Origin: a virus
Lineage: Duplodnaviria > Caudoviricetes
Virus record (IMG/VR): IMGVR_UViG_3300032265_002598
Span: 64,001 to 128,000 of that record
Direction: 5' to 3' (one strand)
Length of the DNA: 64,000 bases
Shown here: positions 18,516 through 36,848 of the stretch, one piece after another
Numbering within the stretch: the first letter of the stretch is position 1
Layout of the letters: every line of letters starts with the position of its first letter
Program-made: the position numbers and the translations under genes
Notes under the pieces: model-generated
What the model saw: only the letters and a program-made list of their open reading frames with translations
Databases searched by the model: none
What the model was told of the DNA's origin: nothing

Positions 18516-18830
18516 ATGTACGATCCAGATAGACTTAAATTTTATATGGAAAGAAGAATTCAAACAACAATGATTGGAGCATTAGCTCGTATTGAAGAAA
18601 ACCTTGGATTTTTATGGGGACAACATAAAGATGGTGAGCTTACAAAAGAAGAAGAAGAATTTGCTGACATTTGGGATTTTACCAGAAATCAAATTTTGAA
18701 TAATGGTAATAATCAAATTAGACAAATTAAAGAAGACTTTTATAGATATGGTGGTATATTTAAATCAAGATATCACTATAATTTCCCAGTAACAAAAAAT
18801 CAAGATAATCAAAACTCTCAGGAAGGATAA
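18516..18830 (+). CDS. Hypothetical protein (104 aa) in the tail chaperone region
   Basis: GAGG RBS, tightly packed with neighbours. Confidence 0.6.
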   Translation: MYDPDRLKFYMERRIQTTMIGALARIEENLGFLWGQHKDGELTKEEEEFADIWDFTRNQILNNGNNQIRQIKEDFYRYGGIFKSRYHYNFPVTKNQDNQNSQEG

Positions 18831-18833
18831 ATA

Positions 18834-19727
18834 ATGAAAACTGAAAATTTTAGTGTTGTAGTTGATGGTGTCGAAAAGCATTTTACTGTTAGATCACCTT
18901 CTTTAAATGATCAAAGAGAAGGACAGAAAGCATACAATCAAGCTTTTACAGACGCTATCAAGTCTAAATCTGTTGTTAGGGCCAAGATGGACGATCTCCT
19001 TGAAGAACAAGGTTTGTGGAATCCGGAAAAGCAAAGAAAATTTGCCGATTTGCAACAAGAATTAATAGACGGAGAAAAGAAACTTGCCAAAGGTGGTTTC
19101 GGTCTTAAAGATGCTAAAGGACTGGCTTTAAGAATGAAAGAAATTAGATCAGAAATTAGAGATCTAATTAGTGTTCGTACCTCTTTAGATAACCATAGTG
19201 CAGAAGGTCAAGCTGATAATGCTAGATTTAATTATTTAGTCTCGGCTTGTGTGGTGTATAAAGATACAAATGATCCCTATTTTCGCAGTTTAGAAGAGTA
19301 CTTAAATAAGGCCGACGATCCTGTTGCCTTGATGGGTGCTCAGAAATTGGCCAGTATGATTTATGGTTTAGATAATAATTTTGAAAAGAATTTACCTGAA
19401 AATAAATTCCTTCAAAAGTATAAATTTGTTGATGAGAAACTAAGACTGGTAGACAAGAGAGGTCGGTTGGTAGATGCTGATGGTCGATTAATTGACGAAC
19501 AAGGTCGATTTATTGATGAGGAAGGCAACTACATTGATAAGAATGGTAATAGAGTCGACAGAGATGGTGATTATGTTGTCGATGCTGAACCATTTTTAGA
19601 TGAAGAAGGAAAACCTGTAGTTTTAGAACAAGACACCAAACCCGAAGTGACTAAAGATGAGACAACTACAACTACAGTATCAGAACCAGTCCCAGCAGAA
19701 ACCCCAGTACCCCCTGCAACTACTTGA
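18834..19727 (+). CDS. Putative tail assembly chaperone with 7-aa DxxG repeats
   Basis: Gene directly upstream of the TMP; helical N-terminal part, acidic repeat-rich C-terminal part; GGAAGG RBS. Confidence 0.55.
   Translation: MKTENFSVVVDGVEKHFTVRSPSLNDQREGQKAYNQAFTDAIKSKSVVRAKMDDLLEEQGLWNPEKQRKFADLQQELIDGEKKLAKGGFGLKDAKGLALRMKEIRSEIRDLISVRTSLDNHSAEGQADNARFNYLVSACVVYKDTNDPYFRSLEEYLNKADDPVALMGAQKLASMIYGLDNNFEKNLPENKFLQKYKFVDEKLRLVDKRGRLVDADGRLIDEQGRFIDEEGNYIDKNGNRVDRDGDYVVDAEPFLDEEGKPVVLEQDTKPEVTKDETTTTTVSEPVPAETPVPPATT
19443..19610 (+). repeat. Tandem 7-residue repeats (x-h-h-D-x-x-G)
   Basis: RLVDKRG RLVDADG RLIDEQG RFIDEEG NYIDKNG NRVDRDG DYVVDAE PFLDEEG. Confidence 0.85.
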
Positions 19728-19808: not shown

Positions 19809-22800
19809 ATGGCTAAAGGATTTAATTTAACAGCACAAATTAATTTACAGGGACCATCTAATATTAATGTTATTGTATCTAACATTAAAAAACAATTAGG
19901 CACCATTTCAGCTAATGTTAATTTAAAGATAGACCCAGCATCGGCTAAAACAGTTGCCAGCTTAAATTCTTCTTTAAATCAACTTAACTTAACCCTTAAA
20001 GCGACGGCATCTTCTGCAACAAATGCTGCTGATGCAGTTAGGGATTTACTATCAGCTATGAATGGTGTTGCATCTGTAAAGTTGCCCAGTCAAGCAGCAC
20101 AAGTATCTTCATCTCTTAATAATGTAGCAGCTTCTTCTGCTAGCGCCCAAAAAGCACTATCTGCTTCAAGAACAGAGATAGAAGAATTTGGTAATCAAGC
20201 TGGTTTGGCAGTAAGAAGATTTGCTGCATTCAGCACTGTAACATCAGTAATATATGGATTAACAGGAGCAATTAGAGGTGGAATATCCGATTTTATTGAT
20301 TTTGATAAACAATTAACTAGAATCGCTCAGGTTACTGGTGAAAGTAAAGACGGATTAGGTAGACTAAAAGGAACCATAACAGAATTATCTACAGGTCTTG
20401 GTGTTACAGCTAAAGACTTAGCTGGCGTATCAGTTACACTATCTCAGGCTGGTCTTACCGCTAGAGATACTGAAAAAGCATTAAGAGCATTGGCTCTTAG
20501 CGCCCTAACAGCATCATTTGATGATATGAATCAGACGGTAGAAGGTTCTATTGCTTTGATGAGACAGTTCAAGATCGGATCTAATGAATTAGAAGCGGCT
20601 CTAGGATCTATCAATGCTGTATCAGCAAAGTTTGCAGTAGAATCTAGTGATATTATTGCTGCTATTCAGCGTACTGGTGGTGTGTTTGCCGCAGCTAGTA
20701 GAGGAGTTAGTGAAGGTAAAGATGCTCTCAATGAATTTATTGCTGTCTTTACTAGCGTTAGAGCAACAACCAGAGAAAGTGCTGAAACAATTGCTACTGG
20801 TTTAAGAACTATCTTTACCAGACTCCAAAGAGGAGACACTATTGAGGCCCTTAAAGAATATGGTGTTAATCTTACAGATTTAGATGGCAAATTCGTTGGT
20901 GCTTATAAAGCTGTTCAGTTATTAGCTGAAGGTTTAGGACAGATCGACCCTAGAGACCTTAAATTCTCCAAGATTGTTGAAGAGCTTGGTGGTTTTAGAC
21001 AGATTGGTAAGGTTATTCCATTAATCCAAGAGTTCACAACGGCACAACAAGCACTACAAGTTGCTCAAGCTGGACAAGGCTCATTAGCTTCTGATGCTGC
21101 TAAAGGACAATTAGCATTAGCAGTACAAATTAGTAAAACAAAACAAGAATTTTTATCTTTGATTCGTAGTATTGGAGATACTGATAGTTTTCAAAAAATG
21201 GTTACTGTTGGTCTTAGTTTAGCTAGTGCTTTAATTAAGGTAGCCGACGCTGCTAAAGGCATTATCCCATTAATAGGATTATTTGCCGCATTCAAGGGTG
21301 CTTCAGCTATACGACAGTTTAGTGCTGGATTTGGAACTGGCTTTGGTGGAGGAGCAGCTAAACAAAATAATAGACCATTAGGTTTTGCTACCGGTGGTTT
21401 AGTTCCCGGACAAGGTAATTCTGATAGTGTATCAGCAAGACTAACTCCTGGTGAGTTTGTTGTGAGAAAAAGTGCTGTTAAAGCTATTGGCTCAAATAAT
21501 CTACATAGAATGAATAGATATACAACTGGTGGAATTGTTAATCAAATAGGTGGTGTTCCAGGAAAAACAATAGTTCAAAATAGCAAAAATCAATTAGTAG
21601 GATTTAGTCCAAAAGACACCTATTCTATATCAGATGGTTCTGAAAATCTTATTATTAAATATGATAGTAAAAAACAAAATTATAGAGCTAGAGGTAAAAT
21701 ACTTGATCCTTCTTTAGTTAATCGTCTTTTTAAAAACAATTTTCAATCTACTGTGTCTTGGGAAGAAATTGTTGCCAAAAGCTATAATGGTAGATTAGTA
21801 AATGGAAAAAATGATAAATTCCCAATAGATATTATTGCTGGAAATACTTTAATAGATGCTAAATTTAGGCCAGAAGAATCATATAAGCCTATGGATGCTT
21901 TAGGAAAAGCATTAAGTTATCGTCTATATAAAGCATCGGGAGGTAGATACAACTATGAAAATAATGGACAACAAAAACTTAAACTTAATAGTTTAGTTAG
22001 AAATACTCTTACAGAAAATCAAGATAATATTAAAGATTCTGGTCAGATAAAATTTGTTTATCCAGAATTTCAAGATATTCCCACAGACTTACCCGGAATT
22101 AAGTCTAATGTAACAAAACGACAAGCTCAATTATCTAGCAAAAGAACAAGTTCAATGCAGAGGGGGTATGCTCAAAGTTCAATTGACATATTCGGTGGAT
22201 CTACTTTCAGTGGAAATAAAACAGATATTAATACTTTAAGCCCCTACGATAAAAAAAGTAGATTGTTTGGAGGAGGATCAGTTCGTAAATTTGAAAATGC
22301 GGGCTTAGTTACTCCAACAGCAGGAACAGCAGCTAATGCTAGTGAAATATTAAAAGTACTTACTTTGCCAGGAGCAATGGCAGCTAGTGGAGCAAGTGCT
22401 GGGGATATACTGAAAATACTAAAGAAAAAAAATGTACTTACTCCAAAAGAACAAGATATCAAAAATAAAATTTTAGGAGCATATACTAAAAAAACTTCTG
22501 GTATTAGATTAGCAGAGAATGCAGATATACAGAAGGCAATTACCGAAGGTCTTTTATTTGGTGCTGCTGGATTTAAAGGTAGAGCTTTTCCTATCACACC
22601 AAGAATGGATATTCCAGGATTAAAGAATGCAGTTAAGGTTAGAATTACTAGTGGTGTTTTAGATTCAGAGATGTCTAAAAAACTATTAAAGAAAATGACA
22701 GTGGGACTTAATAGTGTCGCTAATAAAACTTCAAGAAATATCATGATTAAAGATATCTTGAAACAAACTGGTCCATTATATGCTGATTTTGATAGAACAT

Positions 22801-25800
22801 TAGCCTTCGGTGCTGATAAAATTTTAGGAGATCCAACAAAGCCAAAATATAGTGAATTCTCTGATAGAAGCAAAGTTGCTGGGGCTTTAAGAACAGCTAA
22901 TCTTAGCATTTTAGGTAAAGCTATTGCTAGTACAGTAAGAAAAACCCCAGAATTTGCTAATAACCTAAATGTAATTTCTGCTAGACCACAATCAACAATG
23001 GATTTAATAGCCGGATGGTTAGCTAGCAAGGGCATTCCAATTCCATTAAATAGAATAAAGGGTGTTGGTGGGCCACAAGTTACTCCAGAACAGATTGCTA
23101 GTTTAAAGGCTGACTTGATGAATCCAGAGGGGGCCTTTGTTGACGATGATCCTAGAAATATTGCAGAATCAGAAAGAAGAGGAATCCGATCATATCTATA
23201 TAAAAAACAAAATGTTGGACCAACAGGAAGAAAAAAGCTTGGAGAAGCAAATGCTAAGGGTTATTTAGCCGAAAGAGTAATTCATGAGCTGGGCGGTCCA
23301 ATAGCTAATAAAGCTGCGACTAACTATGGTATCGACTTCCCAGATGGTTTAAAAAGTGCCGCGAAATACTTTGGTATTCCATCAGATATTCCAACAGACG
23401 CTAAACTTACTTTAAATGGTCCTGCTGAACTGAAGAGCCAGATTGGCAATTATCTCAAGGTGAGAGGATATGCTGGTGGTGGTTCTGTTACAGCAGACTA
23501 TTATAGCTTAGAAAAAAGTAGTGGATTAAAAAGTTTTGAATTTGATAATGCTGTAAAGTTTGCTAAAACTATGAATTATAGCATGTCAGAATTTCAAACA
23601 TATCTAAAGAAACTGCAAGTAGAAAAACAGAATAAATCTGGTGTTAAGACAGATAAAGATGCTCTAAGAAAATCTTTAATATCTGGAACCCCAACTGCTA
23701 CATCTAGACAAATGTCATTAGCAGAATCACTAAAAGGTCCAGCAGATGCTGGCTATAGACCAATATTAACAGAAGCTCAAAGAGTTGCTGCTGCTCGTGC
23801 AGATGTGAGAAATGCAACAAGAGGATTTGCTTCTGGTGGACTTGTTCCCGGAGTTGGTAATCAGGATACTGTTCCTGCTAATCTCAATGTGGGTGACTTT
23901 GTTATTCGTAAAAAAGCAGTATCTACTATTGGTGCTAGTAATCTAAGTTCATTAAATAAAAGAGCTAGTGGCGGAGAAATAAGCAACACCGTCCCTGCAC
24001 TATTAACTCCTGGTGAGTTTGTTATAAATAGAAAAACTGCTAGTAGCATAGGAACAGCAACACTTAATAGATTAAACTATGCAGATAAGGCTTCTAAATT
24101 TAATAATGGTGGCCCAGTAGGAACTGTTCAAGAGTTTGCAATAGGTGGAGCTGTACAAAGACTATTCTTTGGTGGTCCAAGCTTACCAGCTAAACCCTCT
24201 AATCCTACAGAGGGTAATGTTCAAATTTCTACTACTGTTGGTGACCAGCTTAGAGGTATGGTAACCGCTTTAAATGACTTAGGAATATCTTCATCTAAAA
24301 CAGCAGAGATTATTAAAAAGGGTGGACAGATCAGTTATCAAGCTGCTATAAAAGCTTATTCTGCTGATATCCAAAAAATGAGATTAAATGGTGCATCTGC
24401 GATACAAGTTGCAGACGCAGAGAGAAAGCTTAGAGATATTAGAGCAGACGCAGCAAAGAATATCGAAACTAGAAAAAAACTCTCTGGAGTTGGTGCAGAT
24501 CAATTACAGAACATAGATACCTCAGCACAGTTTGAGAAAGAAAGATTAACAAATCAAAAGAGAAATAGTTTAAGAAAAAAAGGAATTACTGGAGAAGCAG
24601 CGGATAAAGTATTAGAAGGTAGTGCTGCTAATATTGAAAAAATAGCATATCAAAGTGCAGCAAAATCACAAGGTGTTGATCTTAAAGGTATGGGTCTAAA
24701 TGGTCAGGATATGCAAAAATATATCCAACGATCAATGATGGATGCAAAAACTTTACAGCAAATGAATGCTCAATATTTACAAACTAGAAAGAAAGATTTA
24801 GAAGCAGTAGGACATAGTGCAGCAGAAGCTCATAAAATAGCTCAAAAAGAAATCAAAGAAAGAGAAGCCATACTTAGAGATGTTGCCAAGTCTCGTGGAA
24901 TGGCAGATCCTACAGGGAAGGGATCGTCTGAAAAACTCAGCCAAAGAATGATGATGGCCGGTTTTATGCTTCCTATGATAGGTAGTGCAGCATCTAGTCT
25001 TATTAATCCTGAAAGTAGTGCAGCGAGTGCTGCAACATCTGCTGGTATTCAAGGAGTAACTAATACAGTTGGTATGGGATTAGGCACAATGAGTATGATA
25101 CCTCTTGAAAAACTAGGTAAATTTGGTGGAATACTAGGTATGGCAGCAGTTGCAGCAGCAGCTGTTGGTCAAGCTATGATAGATGCTCGTAATGCTACTA
25201 TAGAGTTTGAGAAAAAGATGGGTCAGAATAAAGCAGAAAAAGCTTTAGAAGAAGTAGGTAAAACTTTTGAAAAACTTGAAAAAGATATAAAGAATATAAA
25301 TCTTCAGAAAATTATTATAACTAAACTAGCAGAAGCTAGTACAAATATCAAAAGTAGTGTAGAAGCTGATGTTAAAAGAGCTAAAGCATATTGGACTAAT
25401 TTATTAGATGCTTATTTCGGTGGAGCAGGAACATCGCAAGGAAATAGGGAAGCAGCAGAAAGAAGTAAAATTTTAGAAAAAGGAGGAGTAGGTAAATATT
25501 TTCAAGCTACAGGTTTTGGTCAAGCTATGATGGGTAATGTTTCTGGTGCTGATGCAGCAGCTAGTGCGTCAAGATCTGCACAAATAAGAGGTTATGCTCC
25601 AGAAACAGCACAGCAAAATGCCAAAATATTTGCTGATACTGCTAGCCAAATTAATCGTCTTATAGAACAAAAATTTAAAGGCGGAGAAAGCTTAGAAAGT
25701 ATTTTAACAAGCATTACAGATGCTTCACAACCAGAATTTCAACAGTTTGCAGAAGTCTTAGCTAAATCTAATGCTGTTATAGGACAACAAATTTTGTATA

Positions 25801-28800
25801 TAGAGTCTGATATACATCTTAAAGCCGATCAGAAAAAAGCACAAATAGAAGCTATACAAGCTACCTACGCTGAAGCAGAGGCCAGAAGAATCTATGGTGT
25901 TGTTGCTAGACAAAAAGAAATAAAATCTTTAGAACAATCGACTGGCTTATTTAGTCGTAGTCTTGAAAGAATGTATCAGAATATGGAACAGTCCATAAAT
26001 AGGACTATCTTTACTTTAGACAAAATGAGTAAAGAATTAGACTTAGTAGTTTCTTCTTTTAAGGGTGAAGCTACAGTAGGCCAAGGCTCATTAGACAGTA
26101 TTAATATGCTACAGAATCCTCGTGCTTATTCTAAGAATGATAGAGAATCTGCTCGTGATCAAGCTTCTAGTTTCTTTTCTGGTAATAGAGATCTAGTTAA
26201 AGGATTATTAAATGCTGGGGATAATTTAGAACAAGTTATTATGACCACTTTAAGTAATACTTTTAGAGATAATCCAGCAGCTAACAACGAACAAATTGGT
26301 ATTGCTATAGAAAGAAATGTTAAAGATCAACTAGCTAATTTATCTTTACCATCTGATGTTGGAGATAAGCTTGCTGCTGAAGTTCAAAAGGCTTTGGGAG
26401 ATTTAAGAAAAGAAGATAATAGTAAAGTTGATTTTGCTCAGTTAGCAGAAAAAATACCTCAATTATCAAAAGTTATTGAGAGTGCAAAAAGAGCACAAGA
26501 AGTAGCAATAAAAGCATTAGAAAATTGGCAAAATGCATTAAATAACTACTCTACTAGAACTAATCAGCTTGTTGATTTGCAAGTAGACACTAATAATAGA
26601 CTGAGAAAGTCAACTCAAATTTTAGCTGATAGTCAAATAGATTTAGCAAAATCTCTTGGTCAAGAAATAGGAGTATCTGATACTAGAAGAGTAGCAGAAT
26701 CTAAAACAGGACAACTAACTGGTGGATTAATAAGTCCAAAAGATATAACTGATAATATCTTAAATCTTGAAGGAAATAGAAGAGCACAAGAAACTGGATC
26801 TAATATTGCTAGAAATAGAGGAGCTAGTGGAGTAGATGATTTTATGAATATGCAGAAGGGTCTAAAAGACACAAATACTGCATTAAGAGAAAACTATGAA
26901 GCTCTCAAAAACTTAGCAGATAATTCAGATGTAGCATCAGCTGCTTTAGGTAAAATTCAAGAAGCTCAACAAAAAAATCAGGGACGAGTTAGTTTTATCG
27001 AAAAATTAGTCACCAGTACACCAGATGAAATGGATGGTTTAGGTAAAGCACTCGGTAGACTACAAACTAATATGAATGGTCAAGTTAATACTATTCAACG
27101 ATCACAAGGAGCACAGCAGGCTTATTATGAAGCTTTACAAAATGGAGCTTCTGGCTTTGAGGCTATGAGAGCTGCTCAAACTGCATTTGCTAATGAGAGA
27201 AAAGAAACGCTAGGTGCTCTTAATGATATTATGCCTTTCTTAGGAAATAATAAACAAAGCAATAATATTAAAGCTAATGTATTAGAAGGTATGTTAAAAG
27301 AATCTGGTCAGGGTGTTTCTCCAATAATGCAACAGGTATTAACTACCCTCAGAAATCCACAAGCTGATCCAGAAACCCAAGCAGCTATGGCTCAGTATCA
27401 ACAGGCCACCAACTTACAATCAGAAGCTAATAGACAATTAGCTATGTTAAATACTAATTTAGCTGGTCAAATAGCAGACGCTTCTGCAAAAGCTTTGAAA
27501 GACGCATTAACTGGAACAGCACTAACTTTCCAAAATGCAGAATTAACAAATATTCGAGACGATGTGGCTATTATCAAGAATTTAATAGGAGCAGGAACGA
27601 CTACACCGACAACCAAAGCTTCTGGAGGTGTTATATATGCTGCTGCTGGTATGGGTATTGATTTTTCTCCAAAGGGTACTGATACTGTTCCAGCAATGTT
27701 GACCCCCGGAGAATTTGTGGTTAATAGAGCAGCTACCCAGAGAAATCTCCCACTATTACGTTCTATCAATAGTCAAAAACATAGTAGTGGTGGTCCTGTT
27801 AGATATTATGCTGGTGGTGGATATGTTAGTAGTATTATGAAGGATCAAACAGATCTTAGGGGAGAAGGACTTAAAGTAACAGATAAAAACTATTTAGATC
27901 CAGATAGTGAAGATTTTAAAAATCTAGTTAGTGATAAATCTCCAACAGTATTTAGTGGATGGAAAAACTATACTAGAAGTCAGGCATCTGGAGAAGGAAG
28001 AAAAGAAGGAGATAACATATATGCTCCTGCTCGTTGGTGGTATGGAATAGCTGGGATGGGTCCTGGAGAAATTGCTTTTAATAACAGAGGGGCTTTATTA
28101 GCGGGTGCTGCTCCAAAAATTGAAGTAACTCCTGATGGATATTTCCAATATACCGCTACTCAACCAACTACAGTAGATCCTATTAATCAAGTTCAACCTA
28201 TGGGTCTTTTGATGTCTAAGGGTGTTATAGGAACAAGACCTATTCGACAAGATCAAATAATAAAATATAAAGAGAAAATTTTAGCAATTAAAAGAAATAT
28301 GGGGGCTCAGGCTTGGGGAGATGACCCATCAGATTTTGATATAGGATCACTTGAAGATATCAATGGTGTGCAAGGGAAAAGTGGTGGGCCAGGTAAAGAG
28401 TACGATCCTAATATCAGTATTGGTAAAAATATTGGTATAATTATTTCTCCCAATAAAAATAGGCCAATAATTACTCCAGTATTTCCTTCTGAAGAAACTA
28501 CAGATATACAAAAAGTTTGGTTGGAAATGACTACAGCTGCTAGTCTTGTTCCAACAGGATATTATGGAACTATAGTTTCTCCACACGCAGTTGAGACAGG
28601 AGGGACGTTAAGAACAGACAACAGCGAAACAGTTCCGGGTGCTAATAATAGTAACGCTGGTCAAGATATTAGAGATAAGGGATTAAAAATTGATTTACTT
28701 AGTACCCCAAGAACTAGCGTTGTTCCAAACGCAGCTATGGCTACAGTAGAAGCTAATTGGGTTAGAGCAAAAGCAGATATTGATGCTAAAATTAATTCTC

Positions 28801-31800
28801 AGAGAATAAATACAACATTTTATAAGGATACTTTAGCTTCTGTTGAAGCTGATAATTTTAAATTTGTAAGAACAAAGGTTAACAATAGACTAGATCAATT
28901 ACAAAAACAACTACAAAATCTATACGAAAACCGTAGTTTGGTAGAAGATATTGGCCCATCTAAAGAGTTTCTTGATTTAGAGCCTTTAAATGCTCCAGAT
29001 CCTATTGTAGATTTGCATGTTTTATCAGCTACTAAAAATAATGAATTACGACAAAAAATAAAAGAACTTCAAGCTATTTCTCCTACTATTCGTGAAGATA
29101 AAGGTTGGAGAGGATTAAATGTTGGTACTATAGGAGCAGCATTTGGTGAAAAATGGATGGACGGTAATGCTATAGATATTCAAGATGAAATGGCAGCTGG
29201 ACCCTTAAAAGAATTTCCTTGGATTGCTAATCTTGATCCAACCATTCTTTTAGCTAATTTAGCTGCTGATATAAGAAGGAAACAAGAAGACTTAGCTAGT
29301 GGTAAAGAGTATGGATTTAATGTTAGTCAAATTACTCATTCTGTTAATGAAAAATTACCAGCACCACTAGATCAATATTCTCTAAAGCATACCGAACAAT
29401 ATTTAAAATATACTGGTCCTCTTTGGAATCCTGATGATCCTAATGCTGATCCTTCTGGTTTCTTGACAGACAATCCTCTTAAAGATTACTTTGTTGTTAA
29501 ACCCTCTCCAGCTAAAGAAGACATGTTTCAATATGCCGGAGAGGCATTTAAAAATCAAAGAAATTTTGCTAGTAAGAATAAACCATTTGATCTTTCTGAT
29601 TTAATCTCTAAATTACAGCCAGCACAAACTCAAACTATAGCAGATTATATTAAGAATCCTACTGACCCACAATTAACCACTGATCTTAAGAATATTGCTG
29701 TTGGAGTTAATCCTAGTTTAATAACAGCTAAAACTGTCGGTGTTAGTAAACCAATTGGATTAGAAGGTTTTGATTTATTTTCTCAAGAAGATAATACTCC
29801 AATTAATCTTAATATTGGTAGTTATTTAACTCATGCAATTGAAGAGTTAGCACAAGAACAAAAAAGAAAAGCTTTAGGAGTAACTGGAGAAATAGATAAT
29901 GCTAAGGGGCTTAGTATTGGTATTGCAGATACTGATAAACAAAAGGCTTCTGTTAATCTAACTCGTGGAGCATTAAATGTTTTTGGTAGATCAAAGATTC
30001 CGGGATTTGCTAATGGATGGTTAGCCAGATATATTGGTAGAATGCCAAGCATATTAGGTATGGCTAAAAATAATAATATTGTAAAATCTGGTACTTCATA
30101 TATAGCCAATGTTTTCAATGAGGCTGGTGCTTATGCTAGTAAATTATTTCAAATGGCTCGTAATCCTCAACAATATAATGCTCTCAAAGAAGCATATGTG
30201 ATGATCTCTGGGGCTACCAGCGCTTTTAATGGATTATCCAATGGAGATACAAGGTTCTTAAAACTACTACAAGACCAAGGAGACTATTCAGCTCTATTTA
30301 GATCTTTAGGAGCAAGTTCTAGTTTCCAAAAAGCAGCAAATAATGAACTAACAGCAGACTATCAAGCTCAATTGGGTCAGGAACTTAAGGGATCAAAGAT
30401 TAGAAAAGTCGGTGCTGATGGTTCACTAAGTTACGCTGATTTCAATAATTCTGTACCAAAAACTTATCAAGACTTAGTAGATACAGCACTTAATCCATAT
30501 AATGAATTTACTAGTCCTTCTATTCGTAAGGGATTGATTAATACATTAATTGCTGATATTTCTAATGGTAAAGATAGTTTAGGAATGCCATTCTTTGATA
30601 AAAGAACTTTGGACTATATTAATAATAATCTTAGAACTCTACAGTCTTGGTACGGTGGTGATGGTAATGCATGGCCCGGACAAGACTCTTTTTATGACGA
30701 AACTTTAGATGCTAAGATCAGAACTGATAGTGTTATAAATGCTCTAAATAATAATGCTGCTGGTGGATTATTAGATCAGGCTAATTTAGCTAATACACAA
30801 TTGGGTGTTGCTACTAAATTTGGTAACTTGCCAAGTGCTCAATGGTTTGAGGCCAGAAAGATTGCACAACCTCAATTTAGAGCTACTGGCGGCATGATCT
30901 ATGCTTCTGAAGGCCAGATGATTAATTTTCAGCCCCGTGGCACAGATACCGTTCCAGCAATGTTAACTCCCGGCGAATTTGTTGTCAATAGACAAGCCAC
31001 CCAAAAGAACCTCCCATTGCTACAATCTATTAATAATGGTAATCATTATTCTAAGGGTGGTCCTGTTAATTATCTATCAGATGGTGGAGAAGCTGCCCCA
31101 TTTAATGCTATAACTGGCAATAGAGTCAAAGAAAAACCAGAAGATAAAGATTCTCCACTAACTAAATATAAAATCAGCTCAGTACTTTATCCCTATGTTA
31201 GTTATCCATTTGATGAGAGAGGATATTCTCAGGATTTACCTCCAGAACTAAAAATGCTTAATACTTTAGGGGGTTATGGCGGTGGAATAGGATATACAAA
31301 TATTTTCTTTGATACTGATTTAGCTAAAAGTTTGCGGTCTATCAGAAGTAATAAAAATAATCAGTATGCAACTAGTACAGCAGTAAATAACAGTTCTGCT
31401 GAGTTTATTAAACAGTTTAAATTTAGAGATATTGATAATAATGATAAATTAACTGGCTTTGATTTTTCTAGCTTTTTATCTGATAGTGATAATATTTTAG
31501 GTTTAATAGATCCAGATTTAGGTGATGGATTTGCTCCTAAAAATCTAATAGCATGGAAAAAAGCAGAAGATAGAGTCAAGGCCAGATCATCTGCTAAGGC
31601 TGTTATTGCTAATTTAACACCAGACTTAGAAAATATTAAAGCTGTTATACAAGATCAACATCCAGTAGATGGTTCAAATAATACTAATGATCGTAATTCT
31701 TATGGGGCTCAAGGTCAAGCTGCAATAGCAATGAGGATGTTGATTTACAATGTAATAGAAACATGGAAAAAAGATTCTATAGAAAGTATAGAGGGTCTTG

Positions 31801-34800
31801 GATCAGATAATGCTCAAGTCAATTCTCAACAAGTAGCAGAAGATATCTATAAAGGTAATAAAACGCCTTTGACGAAAAAATTAGTAGATTGGTTAGATAA
31901 AAAAGAAGGAGCTAAAACTTTAGTTGAAAAAGCTAAAGAATTATTTCCTGGTAGATCCCCTGATGATGCTCCAAATGACAAATTTTTAGCATCAGATTTT
32001 GCTCAAATAGGCGATTTATTTAGAAATGCTCCTAAGTTTATTGAGGCACTATATAAAGGTGAAACTCCATTAGCTAAGGGAAAGAAACATATTTTTTCTC
32101 TATTATCTCAAGGAGCCAGAGTTAAAGGCATTGAGGCTTTAATTAAAGCAAGAACATTATTTTCCGGTTCTGACCAATCAGTACTTGGTGAAAGAACAGT
32201 TTATGCTGATCCTTCAAGAACTCCAGAGAATACTATTGGAAGAGACAAATTAGTATATAGAAACAATCCAATGGGATCGGTATTTGGAGCTGATAGAGAT
32301 CAATCTGGTTTAACTGCCGCAGAAAAAGCTAAAATAGAAGAAAGACTTAGAGAACATGATTGGGCAGGATCATTAGATAATACGGGTTCCTCTCCATCTC
32401 ACGCCATGAGAGATCCTAGGTTTACAACTACTGTTGGTAATGATCTTAATTGGGATAAAGATGGTGATGGAAGAGTATCTAAAGAAGAGTGGTTAGAAAA
32501 ATTTAGTGGCATGGATAATGGTGGAAAAAGATTATTTAGTAAATATGATCTTAATAATAATGGATTTTTAGAGCTTAAAGAATTTACTAAATTTTATAAT
32601 GAGTCCAAGGGTACTCTTGGTCCAGAAAACGATGCGGCAGCTGTAGATTTGGGAAGGTCTATTAATGAAAGACACGCAAATAGAGTAAAACCAGTTGATG
32701 CTTTGAAGGCAATGTTTGAAGATAAAAAAATAAGAGAAGCATTAACAACGAATGCTAAATATTCTATTACAGAGACTTTTATACCTAAAAATCTAAAGAA
32801 TATATCTCAAAATGAAATTGATGAACCAAAAATTCTTAAAGAATTACAGGATAAATATAGCGAATTATATCCTAAGAGAACCACAATACCTGATATATTA
32901 AACAATGAATTACCTTTACCAAAATATATAGATGATAAATTTGCAGATTTATTTGCTGATAGGGCTGAATTTGCTCCCTTAGGTGTTTTAAATAATTATC
33001 ATATAGAAGACCTTCATAAAGTTATTAGAGAACCATTTCATTTTACCAATAAAAATACTTCACGTAATTTACTATTAGAAAAGAATTTTGATTTCAATAA
33101 AGAGCCGTGGAAAGAACTGGTTAAACCATACGAAAAATCTCCCTATCAATTACCGTTTGGCTTTCAATCAGCGACCCAGTTACTCAAATCTAATGCTGAC
33201 CATTGGTTTGACACAACAATATTTCCAGAAAATAATTGGAACAATCCTAGAAGTTGGAGAGATGATAAATATAGTATTGGAGTCATCCCATACGACCCCA
33301 AATCTGTACAACAAGGTCAATGGTCAATACCTCCCGGTCAACAAGTCGGTAACTCTGTTCCACCAGGGCAACAAGCAGGAACACCAGCTAGTCAAGCTGG
33401 AACAGTACCTCCCGGTCAACCACCAACCGGGACATCGGGATCAACAGTTCCTCCTAATAAACCAGTAGAAAACAAGTTAGTTGGCTCTACTATTAGAGAC
33501 AAATACTATGATGAATTAACATATAAAGAATATTTAGCTTCTTTAATCAAAGCTGAAAAAGCTCCAGAAGCTCCAGATAAAAAGTTATTCACAACACCAG
33601 CTTTCTATACTATCGGCCCAGATGGTCAAAAAGTTCGTGATACAGCTTATGACACTAGAGAAACACAAAGAAGAATTGGCGGAGGAAAGCCAATTGATAA
33701 AGATGATATTAATCATGCCATGGTGTCAACATTAGCTAATGATATTTATAATGATTACAATAATGTTCAATCTCATTTAGGAACATTTAAGAATCCAAGA
33801 AGTGATGCTAATGTTAAAGACCAATCTTTATCTGGAATAGAATTAGGCTATGGTAATTTAGTAAATAACTTAACAAAACTTAGCACACTAACTAATCTTT
33901 CCAAGATGAAAAATAAACCCATCATGGTCGGAGAAGCTAAAAATATTCCATTTAGTATTGATGATGTTGTTGATAGACTAAGAGTAATGAGAGAGATATA
34001 TAATAATGAAATCCTATCTAAGAAGAAAGAAAAACTTGGTAAAATTAATGATTCTATTCTCGACGATTTCTTCTCGTCTACTGCAAAAATCACTGAAACC
34101 AACAATGTTCCAACTCCTGCTGATGGCAAGCCATTTAGTGGAAAAGAAGTAAGAACAAATAGAGGTATTCCAGGGCCTATAAGAATGCCTGTTAGAGGTA
34201 TGACTGGAGTAGAAACTCAATATAAAAATTCTTATAATCACTATAGACGTATTTTAGGAGAATATAATTATCATCAGATGGTGGGTAGAGGCAAAAGATA
34301 TGCTCAAGGACATAAAACAACTACTAGAGTAGCTAAAACACTATCTTCTGGTGGAATGGTATATGCTAGTAATGGAATGTTAATTCCTTATGCTCCAAAA
34401 GGAACTGATACTGTACCAGCCATGTTAACTCCAGGAGAATTTGTTGTTAACCGAGCAGCTACTCAAGCTAATTTGCCATTATTACAGAGTATTAATAAAA
34501 ATAAGGGTGGAGAAATCAGTTATTATGCTACTGGTGGAATGGCTGCTCCTGATACTGCTAGTATTTCATACGACATTAGACAACAAGAAGCTAATACTCT
34601 TAATAATCAAAAAACCTCTATGAATAGCAGTAAAACATTGAATGCTATAATAGATACACAAAAAACAACCCAAAATATACAAAGTTCCACACAACAATTT
34701 ATTCCAAGTGTTAATAGTAGCTTTTCTTCTTTGTTTGTAGAATCAAAAAATATTTCAAAAGGAGTTCAAGGAGTAAGAAGAGATATTACAAATGTTGATT

Positions 34801-36848
34801 CTTCAATTTTAAAATCCAAAGATGAAACAAATCAGAATATAACTAGTCTTGCAAAATACAATTCTTCTAGTGCTAACTCTGTTGGAAATAGCATTGGAGC
34901 AATTGGTCAGCAGGTTGTAATGAAGTCAAATGATAATATTAAACACGTTTCTAAAGGTGGTACAGTATATGCTGCTGAAGGTCAATTAATTAATTTCCAG
35001 CCTCATGGCACAGACACTATTCCTGCGATGCTAACTCCTGGAGAATTTGTTGTTAACGCTAGAGCAACACAACAGAATCTTCAATTATTACAGGCTATTA
35101 ATAAAAATAAAGGAGGAATGGTTTATGCTCAAGATGGTATATTAGTACCTAATTCTAGAGAGCTTCAACAATATGGGGATATAAAACAGGACACATTTGA
35201 CCCATCAAAAGCAACAACTCCTAGTTCTGATAAGCGAAAAGCTAAAAGAAGTGAGTATTTACAGAAACAAATAGAGAGAGAAGAAGCAAAAGAATTTAAT
35301 AAATTAGGAATTAACTATAATAATAGTACTACCATAGAAGATATACTAAAAGCTTTGAAAAAACAAAGAAATTACCAAGAAAAAAACGATTACTATCTAC
35401 GTCAATTTATTTCGGATGAATCATTAGGATTAAGACTAAAAAGATTTCCAAAAATTAGCAAAGCAATTGAAACTATAAAAGAACAATCGACTATAAATCC
35501 ATTCGATCCTCCAACAACAGATCCTCTTAATCCTGCCAAACCATCTACAGTTGATGAGCCAAAAGTATATTATAAAGGTGTCGAAACAAAAGCAAATGGA
35601 GGAATGATCTACGCTGCTGAAGGAAAATTAATCAATTTCCAGCCTCGTGGTACTGATACTGTTCCCGCTATGTTAACTCCTGGAGAGTTTGTTGTTAATC
35701 GTCAAGCCACCCAACAAAATCTCTCTTTACTAAAAACTATTAATAGTGGTAATTATAAGGAATCTTCTAAAGGATACTCTCATGGGGGAGTAATATATCT
35801 GGAAAAGGGTGCTCAAGTTCCCCCAGAGTTGCGGGGACTTGAAAATAGTGCTGTTGGTCAAATAATATTAAAAGTCAAAGCTCAAGCTGAAAGTTATCCT
35901 AATCTTTTTGAGGCTCTTGATGATAAAGCTATAAATCAAAATCTTAAAAAAGATGAATTAGTGACAAAGTACGAAGATGCTTGGAAAACTATGGATCCTA
36001 GTGCTAGATATTCATCGGCCCAACAACAATTTAAAACAGATAAAGCTAGAGTAGATTATTTAGAAGAAATATATACTAACAGTATGAATGCTTATGATAG
36101 TATTTTGAAAAGTACTCTATCTCCAAGAGCTAACTATATTAAAGTAAAAGATAAAAGTATAATAGAAATACTGCTTGGACAAAAAGTAGCTAAATTAGAA
36201 CACGATGTAATACATGAAACTTGGGTTGAATTATTCAAAAAGCATCCAGAATTTCGTAGTGGTCCTATTAATGCTGGAGCAACCCAGGCCGCTGGAACAG
36301 GTACTGTAGCAGGACAAACAACGGTAGCAGCAGCAGGAAAACAATATGGTGGTATGATTTATGCTAATCATGGTATGATGATTCCTTATATTCCAAGAGG
36401 TAGTGATACTGTTCCTGCTATGTTAACACCGGGCGAATTTGTTGTTAATAGAGCATCAACCCAGCAAAATCTACCTTTATTACAAGCTATTAACAATAAT
36501 CGATATAGTCGTGGCGGCAGTGTTAAGTATTTAGCTCATGGTGCAATGGCTGATGAGTCTGGTGCTGGTGGTGGTGTATCTAATGGTGGAGGCTCATCCT
36601 CACCCAATATGGATGGATTAAGCCAGTTTACGACAAAATTTGAAGAATTTATTGGCCAATTAAAAGCAATAAACTTACCACCAATTATTAATGTTATGGG
36701 TAATCATAAGGTTGAGGTAGTATTTAATGGAGCAGAAGTATTGAAACAACTCAGTGAAACAGCCATCAGTGATATGGTTGTTGCAGAAGTTGGTAGAGCT
36801 ATGGGTACTCTTAGTGATCAAACAGAAGGCGCTTTAGGGAGAAAATAA
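19809..36848 (+). CDS. Giant tail tape measure protein (5679 aa) with multiple inserted cargo domains
   Basis: TP901-type core (FDKQLTRIAQVTGES...LSQAGL...AVSAKFAVESSDIIAAIQRTGG), Ala/Gly-rich helical and hydrophobic segments, position after tube and chaperone genes, and nine TPGEFVV-type modules. Confidence 0.9.
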   Translation: MAKGFNLTAQINLQGPSNINVIVSNIKKQLGTISANVNLKIDPASAKTVASLNSSLNQLNLTLKATASSATNAADAVRDLLSAMNGVASVKLPSQAAQVSSSLNNVAASSASAQKALSASRTEIEEFGNQAGLAVRRFAAFSTVTSVIYGLTGAIRGGISDFIDFDKQLTRIAQVTGESKDGLGRLKGTITELSTGLGVTAKDLAGVSVTLSQAGLTARDTEKALRALALSALTASFDDMNQTVEGSIALMRQFKIGSNELEAALGSINAVSAKFAVESSDIIAAIQRTGGVFAAASRGVSEGKDALNEFIAVFTSVRATTRESAETIATGLRTIFTRLQRGDTIEALKEYGVNLTDLDGKFVGAYKAVQLLAEGLGQIDPRDLKFSKIVEELGGFRQIGKVIPLIQEFTTAQQALQVAQAGQGSLASDAAKGQLALAVQISKTKQEFLSLIRSIGDTDSFQKMVTVGLSLASALIKVADAAKGIIPLIGLFAAFKGASAIRQFSAGFGTGFGGGAAKQNNRPLGFATGGLVPGQGNSDSVSARLTPGEFVVRKSAVKAIGSNNLHRMNRYTTGGIVNQIGGVPGKTIVQNSKNQLVGFSPKDTYSISDGSENLIIKYDSKKQNYRARGKILDPSLVNRLFKNNFQSTVSWEEIVAKSYNGRLVNGKNDKFPIDIIAGNTLIDAKFRPEESYKPMDALGKALSYRLYKASGGRYNYENNGQQKLKLNSLVRNTLTENQDNIKDSGQIKFVYPEFQDIPTDLPGIKSNVTKRQAQLSSKRTSSMQRGYAQSSIDIFGGSTFSGNKTDINTLSPYDKKSRLFGGGSVRKFENAGLVTPTAGTAANASEILKVLTLPGAMAASGASAGDILKILKKKNVLTPKEQDIKNKILGAYTKKTSGIRLAENADIQKAITEGLLFGAAGFKGRAFPITPRMDIPGLKNAVKVRITSGVLDSEMSKKLLKKMTVGLNSVANKTSRNIMIKDILKQTGPLYADFDRTLAFGADKILGDPTKPKYSEFSDRSKVAGALRTANLSILGKAIASTVRKTPEFANNLNVISARPQSTMDLIAGWLASKGIPIPLNRIKGVGGPQVTPEQIASLKADLMNPEGAFVDDDPRNIAESERRGIRSYLYKKQNVGPTGRKKLGEANAKGYLAERVIHELGGPIANKAATNYGIDFPDGLKSAAKYFGIPSDIPTDAKLTLNGPAELKSQIGNYLKVRGYAGGGSVTADYYSLEKSSGLKSFEFDNAVKFAKTMNYSMSEFQTYLKKLQVEKQNKSGVKTDKDALRKSLISGTPTATSRQMSLAESLKGPADAGYRPILTEAQRVAAARADVRNATRGFASGGLVPGVGNQDTVPANLNVGDFVIRKKAVSTIGASNLSSLNKRASGGEISNTVPALLTPGEFVINRKTASSIGTATLNRLNYADKASKFNNGGPVGTVQEFAIGGAVQRLFFGGPSLPAKPSNPTEGNVQISTTVGDQLRGMVTALNDLGISSSKTAEIIKKGGQISYQAAIKAYSADIQKMRLNGASAIQVADAERKLRDIRADAAKNIETRKKLSGVGADQLQNIDTSAQFEKERLTNQKRNSLRKKGITGEAADKVLEGSAANIEKIAYQSAAKSQGVDLKGMGLNGQDMQKYIQRSMMDAKTLQQMNAQYLQTRKKDLEAVGHSAAEAHKIAQKEIKEREAILRDVAKSRGMADPTGKGSSEKLSQRMMMAGFMLPMIGSAASSLINPESSAASAATSAGIQGVTNTVGMGLGTMSMIPLEKLGKFGGILGMAAVAAAAVGQAMIDARNATIEFEKKMGQNKAEKALEEVGKTFEKLEKDIKNINLQKIIITKLAEASTNIKSSVEADVKRAKAYWTNLLDAYFGGAGTSQGNREAAERSKILEKGGVGKYFQATGFGQAMMGNVSGADAAASASRSAQIRGYAPETAQQNAKIFADTASQINRLIEQKFKGGESLESILTSITDASQPEFQQFAEVLAKSNAVIGQQILYIESDIHLKADQKKAQIEAIQATYAEAEARRIYGVVARQKEIKSLEQSTGLFSRSLERMYQNMEQSINRTIFTLDKMSKELDLVVSSFKGEATVGQGSLDSINMLQNPRAYSKNDRESARDQASSFFSGNRDLVKGLLNAGDNLEQVIMTTLSNTFRDNPAANNEQIGIAIERNVKDQLANLSLPSDVGDKLAAEVQKALGDLRKEDNSKVDFAQLAEKIPQLSKVIESAKRAQEVAIKALENWQNALNNYSTRTNQLVDLQVDTNNRLRKSTQILADSQIDLAKSLGQEIGVSDTRRVAESKTGQLTGGLISPKDITDNILNLEGNRRAQETGSNIARNRGASGVDDFMNMQKGLKDTNTALRENYEALKNLADNSDVASAALGKIQEAQQKNQGRVSFIEKLVTSTPDEMDGLGKALGRLQTNMNGQVNTIQRSQGAQQAYYEALQNGASGFEAMRAAQTAFANERKETLGALNDIMPFLGNNKQSNNIKANVLEGMLKESGQGVSPIMQQVLTTLRNPQADPETQAAMAQYQQATNLQSEANRQLAMLNTNLAGQIADASAKALKDALTGTALTFQNAELTNIRDDVAIIKNLIGAGTTTPTTKASGGVIYAAAGMGIDFSPKGTDTVPAMLTPGEFVVNRAATQRNLPLLRSINSQKHSSGGPVRYYAGGGYVSSIMKDQTDLRGEGLKVTDKNYLDPDSEDFKNLVSDKSPTVFSGWKNYTRSQASGEGRKEGDNIYAPARWWYGIAGMGPGEIAFNNRGALLAGAAPKIEVTPDGYFQYTATQPTTVDPINQVQPMGLLMSKGVIGTRPIRQDQIIKYKEKILAIKRNMGAQAWGDDPSDFDIGSLEDINGVQGKSGGPGKEYDPNISIGKNIGIIISPNKNRPIITPVFPSEETTDIQKVWLEMTTAASLVPTGYYGTIVSPHAVETGGTLRTDNSETVPGANNSNAGQDIRDKGLKIDLLSTPRTSVVPNAAMATVEANWVRAKADIDAKINSQRINTTFYKDTLASVEADNFKFVRTKVNNRLDQLQKQLQNLYENRSLVEDIGPSKEFLDLEPLNAPDPIVDLHVLSATKNNELRQKIKELQAISPTIREDKGWRGLNVGTIGAAFGEKWMDGNAIDIQDEMAAGPLKEFPWIANLDPTILLANLAADIRRKQEDLASGKEYGFNVSQITHSVNEKLPAPLDQYSLKHTEQYLKYTGPLWNPDDPNADPSGFLTDNPLKDYFVVKPSPAKEDMFQYAGEAFKNQRNFASKNKPFDLSDLISKLQPAQTQTIADYIKNPTDPQLTTDLKNIAVGVNPSLITAKTVGVSKPIGLEGFDLFSQEDNTPINLNIGSYLTHAIEELAQEQKRKALGVTGEIDNAKGLSIGIADTDKQKASVNLTRGALNVFGRSKIPGFANGWLARYIGRMPSILGMAKNNNIVKSGTSYIANVFNEAGAYASKLFQMARNPQQYNALKEAYVMISGATSAFNGLSNGDTRFLKLLQDQGDYSALFRSLGASSSFQKAANNELTADYQAQLGQELKGSKIRKVGADGSLSYADFNNSVPKTYQDLVDTALNPYNEFTSPSIRKGLINTLIADISNGKDSLGMPFFDKRTLDYINNNLRTLQSWYGGDGNAWPGQDSFYDETLDAKIRTDSVINALNNNAAGGLLDQANLANTQLGVATKFGNLPSAQWFEARKIAQPQFRATGGMIYASEGQMINFQPRGTDTVPAMLTPGEFVVNRQATQKNLPLLQSINNGNHYSKGGPVNYLSDGGEAAPFNAITGNRVKEKPEDKDSPLTKYKISSVLYPYVSYPFDERGYSQDLPPELKMLNTLGGYGGGIGYTNIFFDTDLAKSLRSIRSNKNNQYATSTAVNNSSAEFIKQFKFRDIDNNDKLTGFDFSSFLSDSDNILGLIDPDLGDGFAPKNLIAWKKAEDRVKARSSAKAVIANLTPDLENIKAVIQDQHPVDGSNNTNDRNSYGAQGQAAIAMRMLIYNVIETWKKDSIESIEGLGSDNAQVNSQQVAEDIYKGNKTPLTKKLVDWLDKKEGAKTLVEKAKELFPGRSPDDAPNDKFLASDFAQIGDLFRNAPKFIEALYKGETPLAKGKKHIFSLLSQGARVKGIEALIKARTLFSGSDQSVLGERTVYADPSRTPENTIGRDKLVYRNNPMGSVFGADRDQSGLTAAEKAKIEERLREHDWAGSLDNTGSSPSHAMRDPRFTTTVGNDLNWDKDGDGRVSKEEWLEKFSGMDNGGKRLFSKYDLNNNGFLELKEFTKFYNESKGTLGPENDAAAVDLGRSINERHANRVKPVDALKAMFEDKKIREALTTNAKYSITETFIPKNLKNISQNEIDEPKILKELQDKYSELYPKRTTIPDILNNELPLPKYIDDKFADLFADRAEFAPLGVLNNYHIEDLHKVIREPFHFTNKNTSRNLLLEKNFDFNKEPWKELVKPYEKSPYQLPFGFQSATQLLKSNADHWFDTTIFPENNWNNPRSWRDDKYSIGVIPYDPKSVQQGQWSIPPGQQVGNSVPPGQQAGTPASQAGTVPPGQPPTGTSGSTVPPNKPVENKLVGSTIRDKYYDELTYKEYLASLIKAEKAPEAPDKKLFTTPAFYTIGPDGQKVRDTAYDTRETQRRIGGGKPIDKDDINHAMVSTLANDIYNDYNNVQSHLGTFKNPRSDANVKDQSLSGIELGYGNLVNNLTKLSTLTNLSKMKNKPIMVGEAKNIPFSIDDVVDRLRVMREIYNNEILSKKKEKLGKINDSILDDFFSSTAKITETNNVPTPADGKPFSGKEVRTNRGIPGPIRMPVRGMTGVETQYKNSYNHYRRILGEYNYHQMVGRGKRYAQGHKTTTRVAKTLSSGGMVYASNGMLIPYAPKGTDTVPAMLTPGEFVVNRAATQANLPLLQSINKNKGGEISYYATGGMAAPDTASISYDIRQQEANTLNNQKTSMNSSKTLNAIIDTQKTTQNIQSSTQQFIPSVNSSFSSLFVESKNISKGVQGVRRDITNVDSSILKSKDETNQNITSLAKYNSSSANSVGNSIGAIGQQVVMKSNDNIKHVSKGGTVYAAEGQLINFQPHGTDTIPAMLTPGEFVVNARATQQNLQLLQAINKNKGGMVYAQDGILVPNSRELQQYGDIKQDTFDPSKATTPSSDKRKAKRSEYLQKQIEREEAKEFNKLGINYNNSTTIEDILKALKKQRNYQEKNDYYLRQFISDESLGLRLKRFPKISKAIETIKEQSTINPFDPPTTDPLNPAKPSTVDEPKVYYKGVETKANGGMIYAAEGKLINFQPRGTDTVPAMLTPGEFVVNRQATQQNLSLLKTINSGNYKESSKGYSHGGVIYLEKGAQVPPELRGLENSAVGQIILKVKAQAESYPNLFEALDDKAINQNLKKDELVTKYEDAWKTMDPSARYSSAQQQFKTDKARVDYLEEIYTNSMNAYDSILKSTLSPRANYIKVKDKSIIEILLGQKVAKLEHDVIHETWVELFKKHPEFRSGPINAGATQAAGTGTVAGQTTVAAAGKQYGGMIYANHGMMIPYIPRGSDTVPAMLTPGEFVVNRASTQQNLPLLQAINNNRYSRGGSVKYLAHGAMADESGAGGGVSNGGGSSSPNMDGLSQFTTKFEEFIGQLKAINLPPIINVMGNHKVEVVFNGAEVLKQLSETAISDMVVAEVGRAMGTLSDQTEGALGRK
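21759..21863 (+). other. PD-(D/E)xK-like nuclease motif 1 inside the TMP
   Basis: WEEIVAKSYNGRLVNGKNDKFPIDIIAGNTLIDAK gives the E...D...D-x-K arrangement. Confidence 0.45.
22770..23201 (+). other. HAD-superfamily phosphatase domain inside the TMP
   Basis: All four HAD motifs in order: I YADFDRTL, II VISAR, III LKA, IV FVDDD. Confidence 0.75.
23259..23405 (+). other. PD-(D/E)xK-like nuclease motif 2 inside the TMP
   Basis: GYLAERVIHE...YGIDFPDG...IPTDAK gives the E...D...D-x-K arrangement. Confidence 0.4.
32454..32600 (+). other. Paired EF-hand Ca2+-binding loops inside the TMP
   Basis: DKDGDGRVSKEE(W) and DLNNNGFLELKE(F) both fit the 12-residue EF-loop (D1, D/N3, D/N5, G6, hydrophobic 8, E12); the loops start 31 aa apart. 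Confidence 0.8.

Follow-up and report, generated by a model that had tools for sequence, protein, structure and literature searches.

A giant phage tape measure protein with a conserved backbone and cassettes exchanged at copies of a lambda gpH-type module

Tape measure proteins (TMPs) are the first phage material that enters the cell. This analysis concerns a TMP gene in a 64,000-nucleotide stretch of DNA from a virus of the Caudoviricetes (positions 64,001 to 128,000 of the IMG/VR record IMGVR_UViG_3300032265_002598), referred to below as the window. Its predicted product of 5679 amino acids (aa) is punctuated by nine copies of a conserved GG...GEFV...GG module, each ~70-85 aa long. By sequence, the module is homologous to the motif near the C-terminus of the phage lambda TMP, gpH, and is here multiplied. 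Among metagenomic relatives, a backbone formed by blocks A, C, D and the C-terminus is conserved, and cassettes are exchanged at two slots bounded by modules. With a probability of roughly 70%, we read the protein as a single tail TMP of an uncultured, apparently non-contractile-tailed 201-kb phage, a ruler that also carries passengers.

The gene is one open reading frame (ORF), open for all 5679 codons without interruption, and its product contains no cysteine. Two TMP families matched it well above their cut-offs, namely PF10145 at aa 189-382 (83.4 bits; cut-off 33.2) and TIGR01760 (94.3 bits; cut-off 28.8). On these two profile matches, the product is assigned to the TP901-family tail tape measure proteins. 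The host record is a complete virus genome of 201,067 bp with direct terminal repeats and ~32% G+C, in which this ORF is the sole match to PF10145 and a search for the tail-sheath family PF04984 gave no match. Helix-forming residues account for 46-51% of blocks A and C, and hydrophobic 19-mers lie at aa 464-492, 1714-1732 and 1769-1791. Tail-fibre-like ORFs lie upstream of the gene, two small ORFs directly upstream and giant ORFs downstream, and this order is kept in a relative. A putative tube protein corresponds to positions 17468-18514. A megablast search for isolated relatives of the phage returned no match. The first-pass annotation, made by a model from the letters of the sequence, had proposed a giant TMP with nine modules, and both parts of this proposal were recovered. 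Its block sizes also agree with those given here (Table 1) within the definition of the module, with blocks F, G and H at 126-165 aa and the C-terminus at 93 aa.

The G(E/D)FV cores of the nine modules were located by regular expression at aa 548, 1362, 1402, 2634, 3722, 4876, 5078, 5292 and 5542. A profile built from 100 modules was searched against all six frames of the 201,067-bp genome and gave exactly nine matches, all inside the TMP ORF (E 7e-18 to 9e-32). Nine profile matches in one ORF and none elsewhere are far beyond chance. Three of the copies (aa 512-589 and 1337-1451) form a short class that resembles lambda gpH 732-786. The other six form a long class with a nearly letter-for-letter common string, GTDTVPAMLTPGEFVVN. 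By their codons, the copies are old, not recent duplicates: over 54 codons, module pairs have a synonymous divergence (dS) of 0.8-2.0 and a ratio of non-synonymous to synonymous divergence (dN/dS) of 0.07-0.34, which points to saturated synonymous sites and purifying selection. Selection on the peptide had been suggested earlier from mostly synonymous differences in the module core. This is borne out by the 17-codon core, where pairwise codon differences are 112 synonymous versus 21 non-synonymous. Across the family, a 15-residue core is identical in ~380 of 627 copies, while whole proteins are just 30-75% identical.

By eye, the short class resembles the peptidoglycan-binding domain LysM. This identity was rejected: hhalign against E. 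coli MltD gave a probability of 0.3%, and Pfam scans of 100 modules were inconsistent, with a single LysM_RLK match at E 0.064. In the literature searched for the module motif or for a TMP polyprotein, no prior description of a repeated module or of TMP cassette exchange was found.

The connection to lambda had been given in the first-pass annotation as a motif FATGG...GEFVF...YATGG in gpH. The motif is present in the fetched gpH sequence at residues 732-786, and its homology to the module is supported by hhalign of the module profile against gpH 732-784 (probability 95%, E 3.3e-8). An hmmsearch of the profile on PDB sequences matched 8iyk_H at 732-786 (E 1e-6). In the PDB sequence set, only Douge gp16 and lambda gpH carry the module, and neither structure resolves it (PMC13033339, PMC12617516). 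Lambda gpH is cut in or near a Gly-rich region at ~690-710, close upstream of the module (PMC12617516). The cut yields gpH* and a ~14-kDa piece, gpHC, which starts about at the module and ends in a helix bound to gpI (PMC12617516, PMC10721106). This last helix, in gpH 787-853, docks on gpI in the tail tip, and residues ~690-817 are unresolved in cryo-EM maps (PMC12617516, PMC10721106). In phage T5, cleavage of the TMP pb2 follows R1127 and separates a hydrophobic stretch from a muralytic domain, and it involves the host (PMC10038345).

The elements of gpH 691-853 follow the same order as those found here: a hydrophobic and Gly-rich stretch, then the module, then a C-terminal helix, which in lambda docks in the tail tip. 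A hydrophobic and Gly-rich stretch at aa 464-525, at the end of block A, is like gpH 691-730, and the C-terminal segment at aa 5587-5679 is the positional counterpart of gpH 787-853. Lambda gpH differs in having one module and no inserted globular blocks; in the TMP of the window, module 1 is separated from the C-terminal part by ~5000 residues, with eight more modules. The positions of the first and last modules, together with the upstream hydrophobic stretch, indicate at the sequence level a lambda-like C-terminal plan with an insertion of ~5000 residues.

A homologue search confined to proteins of 3.1-9.9 thousand residues returned 462 giant homologues, all metagenomic and on contigs of up to 241 kb; one of them carries the label of a Sphingobacteriia MAG. 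In 120 relatives examined with the nine-copy model, every protein has 2-9 modules, and total lengths range from 3313 to 7872 aa. For the first module, the median start is aa 516; it belongs to the short class in 119/120 and follows a hydrophobic stretch in 94/120. The last module ends at a median of 141 aa before the C-terminus. Cutting the 120 proteins at their modules gave 768 blocks, which fall into 151 clusters. Four clusters are near-universal, corresponding to A (118 relatives), C (120), D (107) and the C-terminal segment (84). The remaining blocks form 147 clusters, 91 of which are singletons, and there are two hypervariable slots, one after module 1 and the other between D and the C-terminus.

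Breakpoints between relatives were found to concentrate at the modules. Among 60 proteins, 52% of the internal ends of long high-scoring segment pairs lie within 30 aa of a module versus 16% expected; the proportion is 28% after the ends are collapsed into unique 20-aa bins. For instance, F-module-G is inserted between two adjacent modules in the relative P0001 as compared with P0003. A close relative has a TMP of 4878 aa, ~800 aa shorter and with other cassettes, between flanking genes of the same sizes as here. The earlier suggestion that relatives would combine conserved modules with variable cargo is therefore supported: the modules are kept, two slots are hypervariable and the breakpoints fall at modules. 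The wider idea that the blocks between modules are cargo may apply to those in the two slots, which vary, and fails for A, C, D and the C-terminus, which form a backbone in 84-120 of the 120 relatives. Beyond the giant homologues, the module profile matched 29,984 proteins among 1.84 billion cluster representatives, 1,515 of them at E<=1e-30. The best matches carry 4-12 copies in proteins of 2.3-7.9 thousand residues. In isolated phages, one module was found in lambda, Fionnbharth and Domovoi and two in Douge. A tblastn search with block C against 50,697 phage records found no isolate homologue.

The first hypervariable slot is occupied here by block B, which had been described in the first-pass annotation as enzyme-like. 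Modelling with 29 homologues agrees with that description. The region at aa ~840-1310 is conserved and confidently modelled, and the N-terminal ~270 aa are variable and poorly modelled. Four HAD motifs occur in order: D993-x-D995-x-T997, S1057-A-R-P, K1100 and D1112-D1113-D1114. Their residues are invariant in the 29 homologues (mutually 29-74% identical) except for S1057, which is S or T with an invariant A-R-P after it, and the motif string is kept in 43/120 relatives. The HAD domain has a model confidence (pLDDT) of 80-92. The top 50 Foldseek matches of the block B model were almost all HAD enzymes (E 3e-4 to 1e-2), including AphA, phosphoserine phosphatase and T4 Pnkp. The best VIA match was the T4 Pnkp 3'-phosphatase (5uj0_B; Z 12.2, rmsd 2.9, 124 aligned residues), followed by T4 PNK (Z 11.2) and Pnkp1 of an RNA repair complex (Z 11.0); the other rows were mostly HAD enzymes. 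Residues 986-1133 are confidently modelled as a HAD-fold, DxDxT-class phosphatase-like domain that is nearest to polynucleotide 3'-phosphatases. T4 Pnkp and the Pnkp1 of bacterial Pnkp/Rnl/Hen1 RNA repair share the four motifs in the same order and are the best structural matches. The domain in block B differs from them in its low identity (12-14%), in having no adjoining kinase P-loop and in lying inside a predicted virion protein. The region that follows, aa 1134-1336 (nt ~23208-23816), is also conserved and confidently modelled, with invariant D1176, F1177, K1199 and T1201 (...DFP...TDAK...), and no fold or profile match was obtained for it. A feature search of the ESM Atlas with blocks B and D gave no usable match.

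The other large blocks are of different kinds. Block C is predicted from its sequence to be helical with a transmembrane hairpin (the two hydrophobic segments at nt 24948-25181), like the channel-forming part of ordinary TMPs. Block D was modelled by AlphaFold2 from 49 sequences as a mixed alpha/beta, multi-domain protein with pLDDT mostly 80-90. Its best Foldseek match in the PDB had E 5e-3 and probability 0.23, and neither the AFDB clusters nor the Atlas gave a credible match. A wide VIA search found just a generic four-helix bundle at model residues 782-894. In so long a model, single domains are poorly tested by these searches. Block E is predicted to be a Ca2+-binding block with an EF-hand pair at aa 4216-4264 (nt 32454-32600), scoring 30.1 bits for EF-hand_5 (cut-off 25.9) and 27.0 bits for EF-hand_1 (cut-off 25.4). 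Its two 12-residue loops start with DKDGDG and DLNNNG, and both have E at position 12. The HAD fold of B, the globular alpha/beta fold of D and the EF-hand pair of E agree with the earlier expectation that several blocks between modules are not coiled coils.

Twenty representative variable cassettes from relatives were scanned as well. In P0011, a 5701-aa relative, the first slot contains a PF03496 ADP-ribosyltransferase exoenzyme at aa 1331-1531 (30.1 bits; cut-off 23.4), just upstream of a module. A slot-1 homologue of this segment is present in 14/120 giant TMPs and is not in the TMP of the window. EF-hand matches, which recur in distal cassettes, were obtained in four other cassettes, just one of them above the Pfam cut-off, and SHD1 was above its cut-off in one other cassette; the remaining cassettes could not be assigned to a family.

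Table 1. Coordinates of the tape measure ORF and its parts, in nucleotide positions of the window.
Feature	Position	Strand	Basis or remark
Whole tape measure ORF	19809..36848	+	5679 aa
Block A, aa 1-511, TP901-type TMP core	19809..21341	+	PF10145 at nt 20373-20954; in 118/120 relatives
Module 1, aa 512-589, short lambda-like class, FATGG...TPGEFVV...YTTGG	21342..21575	+	regular expression and profile
Block B, aa 590-1336, hypervariable slot 1	21576..23816	+	alignment, AlphaFold2 model, clustering
HAD-fold phosphatase-like domain (modelled), aa 986-1133	22764..23207	+	motifs, Foldseek, VIA
Modules 2 and 3, aa 1337-1451, tandem, overlapping, short class	23817..24161	+	regular expression and profile
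Block C, aa 1452-2599, helix-rich second TMP-like block, universal backbone	24162..27605	+	in 120/120 relatives
Module 4, aa 2600-2678, long class	27606..27842	+	profile
Block D, aa 2679-3687, conserved globular mixed alpha/beta multi-domain	27843..30869	+	AlphaFold2; in 107/120 relatives
Module 5, aa 3688-3767, long class	30870..31109	+	profile
Block E, aa 3768-4841, variable distal cassette	31110..34331	+	in 3/120 relatives; EF-hand pair; P/Q/G-rich linker
Module 6, aa 4842-4917, long class	34332..34559	+	profile
Block F, aa 4918-5043, S/T/N/Q-rich, rare among relatives	34560..34937	+	clustering
Module 7, aa 5044-5118, long class	34938..35162	+	profile
Block G, aa 5119-5257, small variable cassette	35163..35579	+	clustering
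Module 8, aa 5258-5342, long class	35580..35834	+	profile
Block H, aa 5343-5507, small cassette common to 19 relatives	35835..36329	+	clustering
Module 9, aa 5508-5586, long class	36330..36566	+	profile
C-terminal segment, aa 5587-5679, Gly-rich stretch then strand/helix	36567..36845	+	kept in 84/120 relatives

The neighbouring genes are all on the plus strand. Upstream of the tail-fibre-like genes, an ORF of at least 3055 aa (3-9170) is truncated by the start of the window; it encodes a giant virion-region protein. A 310-aa ORF (13063-13995) has an N-terminus that matches many tail-fibre PHROGs. Its orthologue in a relative (L005:3265-4197) matches PF18454, Mtd_N, the N-terminal domain of the Bordetella phage tropism determinant. 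Two ORFs of 104 and 297 aa (18516-18830 and 18834-19727) lie directly upstream of the TMP gene, in the usual position of the tail assembly chaperones. They are in the same frame, with TAA plus one codon between them, an arrangement that is kept in a relative, and the 297-aa ORF has a run of RLVD/RLID/RFID/NYID repeats. At the other end, the TAA stop of the TMP gene shares one base with the ATG of the next gene (TAATG, 36846-36850), and this overlap suggests translational coupling. Three giant ORFs follow directly downstream (36848-41218, 42863-48349 and 48356-56194; 1456, 1828 and 2612 aa) and are presumably genes for proteins of the distal tail or baseplate. Their only Pfam match is a weak LbR_Ice_bind beta-roll below the cut-off. 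The counterparts of the first two in a relative are 1458 and 1823 aa long, and the third lies beyond the fetched loci. No family matches for tube, chaperone or distal tail proteins were obtained near the TMP gene.

Large TMPs with enzymatic domains have been described in a few phages. The TMP gp96 of Thermus phage P23-45 has 5002 aa, with an active N-terminal virion RNA polymerase and membrane and peptidase segments, and the siphovirus tails of P23-45 and P74-26 are ~0.8-1 micrometre long (PMC10770324, PMC10034513). This protein (and its counterparts in P74-26, G20c and TSP4) resembles the TMP of the window as a giant siphovirus TMP with a large folded enzyme and, in the reading given here, as a ruler together with a delivered enzyme. 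It differs in that its cargo is single and N-terminal, neither a repeated junction module nor an exchange of cassettes has been reported in it, and no sequence similarity between the two was detected. In the organism summary of an isolate-phage tblastn search with the module (E<=1e-3), no Thermus phage record appeared. Functional domains are also embedded in T5 pb2 (muralytic) and in the TMP of the Brevundimonas phage Domovoi (SLT), and the TMPs of mycobacteriophages TM4, Douge (two modules) and Fionnbharth (one module) are of this kind. These TMPs differ from the one described here in having one or two modules, one enzyme aimed at the cell wall and no cassette series. We know of no phosphatase, ADP-ribosyltransferase or EF-hand cargo in the TMPs of T5, the mycobacteriophages or Domovoi.

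If the protein is a ruler that also carries passengers, the following sequence of events can be proposed. Three to six TMP copies, as in other TMPs, would lie extended and metastable inside the lumen of a tail of great length. With 0.15 nm for each residue, this tail would measure ~0.85 micrometres, comparable with those of P23-45 and P74-26. From its position only, we infer that the C-terminal segment docks at the tail tip, where the last ~90 residues would hold the copies until they are expelled ahead of the DNA. Block C would help to form a conduit through the envelope. After refolding, the cassettes would serve as pre-made enzymes or sensors in the periplasm or the cytoplasm, and the modules would be the joints between units. 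Delivery of the cassettes at ejection is proposed from the general behaviour of TMPs and the precedent of P23-45.

Several points weigh against this reading. The TMP is known here from sequence and models, not from virions. A lumen of ~4 nm is too narrow for folded domains of the predicted sizes to sit side by side, so the domains would have to unfold for delivery and refold afterwards, as is assumed from other TMPs. Conservation in blocks C and D equals that of the core, so much of the extra length may be structural, not cargo. The module regions have pLDDT <50 in both AlphaFold2 models (with blocks B and D), which leaves the structure and role of the module poorly supported by modelling. Pfam and NCBIfam at E<=0.1 place no HAD family on block B, and a block B profile against the PDB reached a HAD protein at E 0.5 only.

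By homology with lambda, the modules probably mark hinge or processing points. That several of them are actually cut is doubtful in our view. The first-pass annotation had gone further and described the protein as a cargo-carrying polyprotein. The TMP identity, the multiplied gpH-type module, the blocks that are not coiled coils and the variable slots bounded by modules all stand; the cargo claim is weakened by C and D being backbone, and the step to separate, cleaved proteins by the lack of free-standing block genes and of the five protease families searched. In a true polyprotein, most modules would be cut, or have a cut next to them, while the tail matures or once the chain has been ejected. 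The separate products would be the core, the phosphatase block, the conduit block, each of D to H and a C-terminal piece bound to the tip. We treat this as a tentative alternative. It is encouraged by lambda, where the module lies at the N-terminus of the released gpHC and directly follows the Gly-rich cut region (PMC12617516), and by T5 pb2, which is cut between a hydrophobic stretch and an enzyme domain. Module 1 is likewise preceded by a hydrophobic and Gly-rich stretch, as in 94/120 relatives, cassettes are gained and lost as block-plus-module units, and recognition by a single invariant partner would fit a module so extremely conserved. However, the lambda precedent itself has no established cut site or protease, most long-class modules are without an upstream Gly-rich or hydrophobic stretch, and a protease site is far smaller than a conserved unit of 70-85 aa. 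Some modules also stand in tandem with no block between (27/555 gaps). The protease search covered only five families, all of them absent from the genome (JAB, PF14464; NlpC/P60, PF00877; C48, PF02902; C39, PF03412; S78, PF04586). If each piece acted on its own, relatives with B2 (aa 840-1335) or D (aa 2679-3687) as a separate gene might be expected; none was found in a word-based search, which distant homologues could escape.

In the most far-reaching form of this idea, which we think unlikely, the gpH-type module would be a self-contained processing element triggered by assembly or ejection, and its multiplication in this widespread, uncultured group of jumbo siphoviruses would have led to a true injected polyprotein with swappable, ready-made effectors that enter ahead of the DNA. 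If true, this would explain the absence of an identified gpH protease. The effector set would then comprise a polynucleotide-3'-phosphatase-like enzyme and a Ca2+-binding block here, and ADP-ribosyltransferases in relatives.

The modules may instead be structural joints that are never cut, docking or register elements (oligomerisation knots, or contacts with the tube lumen, the tail chaperone or tip proteins) that order a long ruler during assembly. This is possible, and the odds as we see them are against it. The module occurs in ~30,000 TMP clusters, mostly as a single copy near the C-terminus, and in lambda it belongs to the piece that stays at the tail tip (PMC12617516). Its low monomer pLDDT would fit a fold formed only in a complex, and the class differs between the first position (short) and the last (long). 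Cassette exchange at the modules is left unexplained by this proposal, unless the modules simply tolerate insertions. It is improbable that the protein does nothing except set the length of an extremely long tail, with enzymes and globular blocks as relics or filler. In its favour, tail length follows TMP length in every phage tested, with 5002 aa for a tail of ~0.8-1 micrometre in P23-45 and P74-26, and the relatives cover a wide range of lengths (3313-7872 aa). The HAD catalytic residues are nevertheless invariant over 29 homologues that are only 29-74% identical, ADP-ribosyltransferase and EF-hand domains exceed their Pfam cut-offs in relatives, and block D is modelled as compact globular domains. 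Constraint of this kind argues that the blocks are not filler. An artefact, with several neighbouring genes joined through a mistake in assembly or gene calling, has the unusual size alone in its favour and is very hard to credit: the reading frame is uninterrupted, the genome record is complete with direct terminal repeats, the locus is syntenic in two independent assemblies, and 462 independent giant homologues from many metagenomes have the same block order.

This TMP belongs to a large family known only from metagenomes, in which the protein is a two-slot platform with exchange at copies of one motif. To our knowledge, the virion RNA polymerase of P23-45 is the one example of a working enzyme delivered by a TMP. 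Injection of a pre-made effector is known from T4, which delivers Alt from its head. The modules suggest natural insertion points for engineering cargo into phage tails. What is the function of the C-terminal motif of gpH? This becomes testable, and with it the place and mechanism of the lambda gpH cut, a question that is 40 years old. Do siphoviruses generally inject pre-made effectors via the tail lumen? This can be tested as well, and end-healing phosphatases, ADP-ribosyltransferases and Ca2+ sensors would be the candidate effectors.

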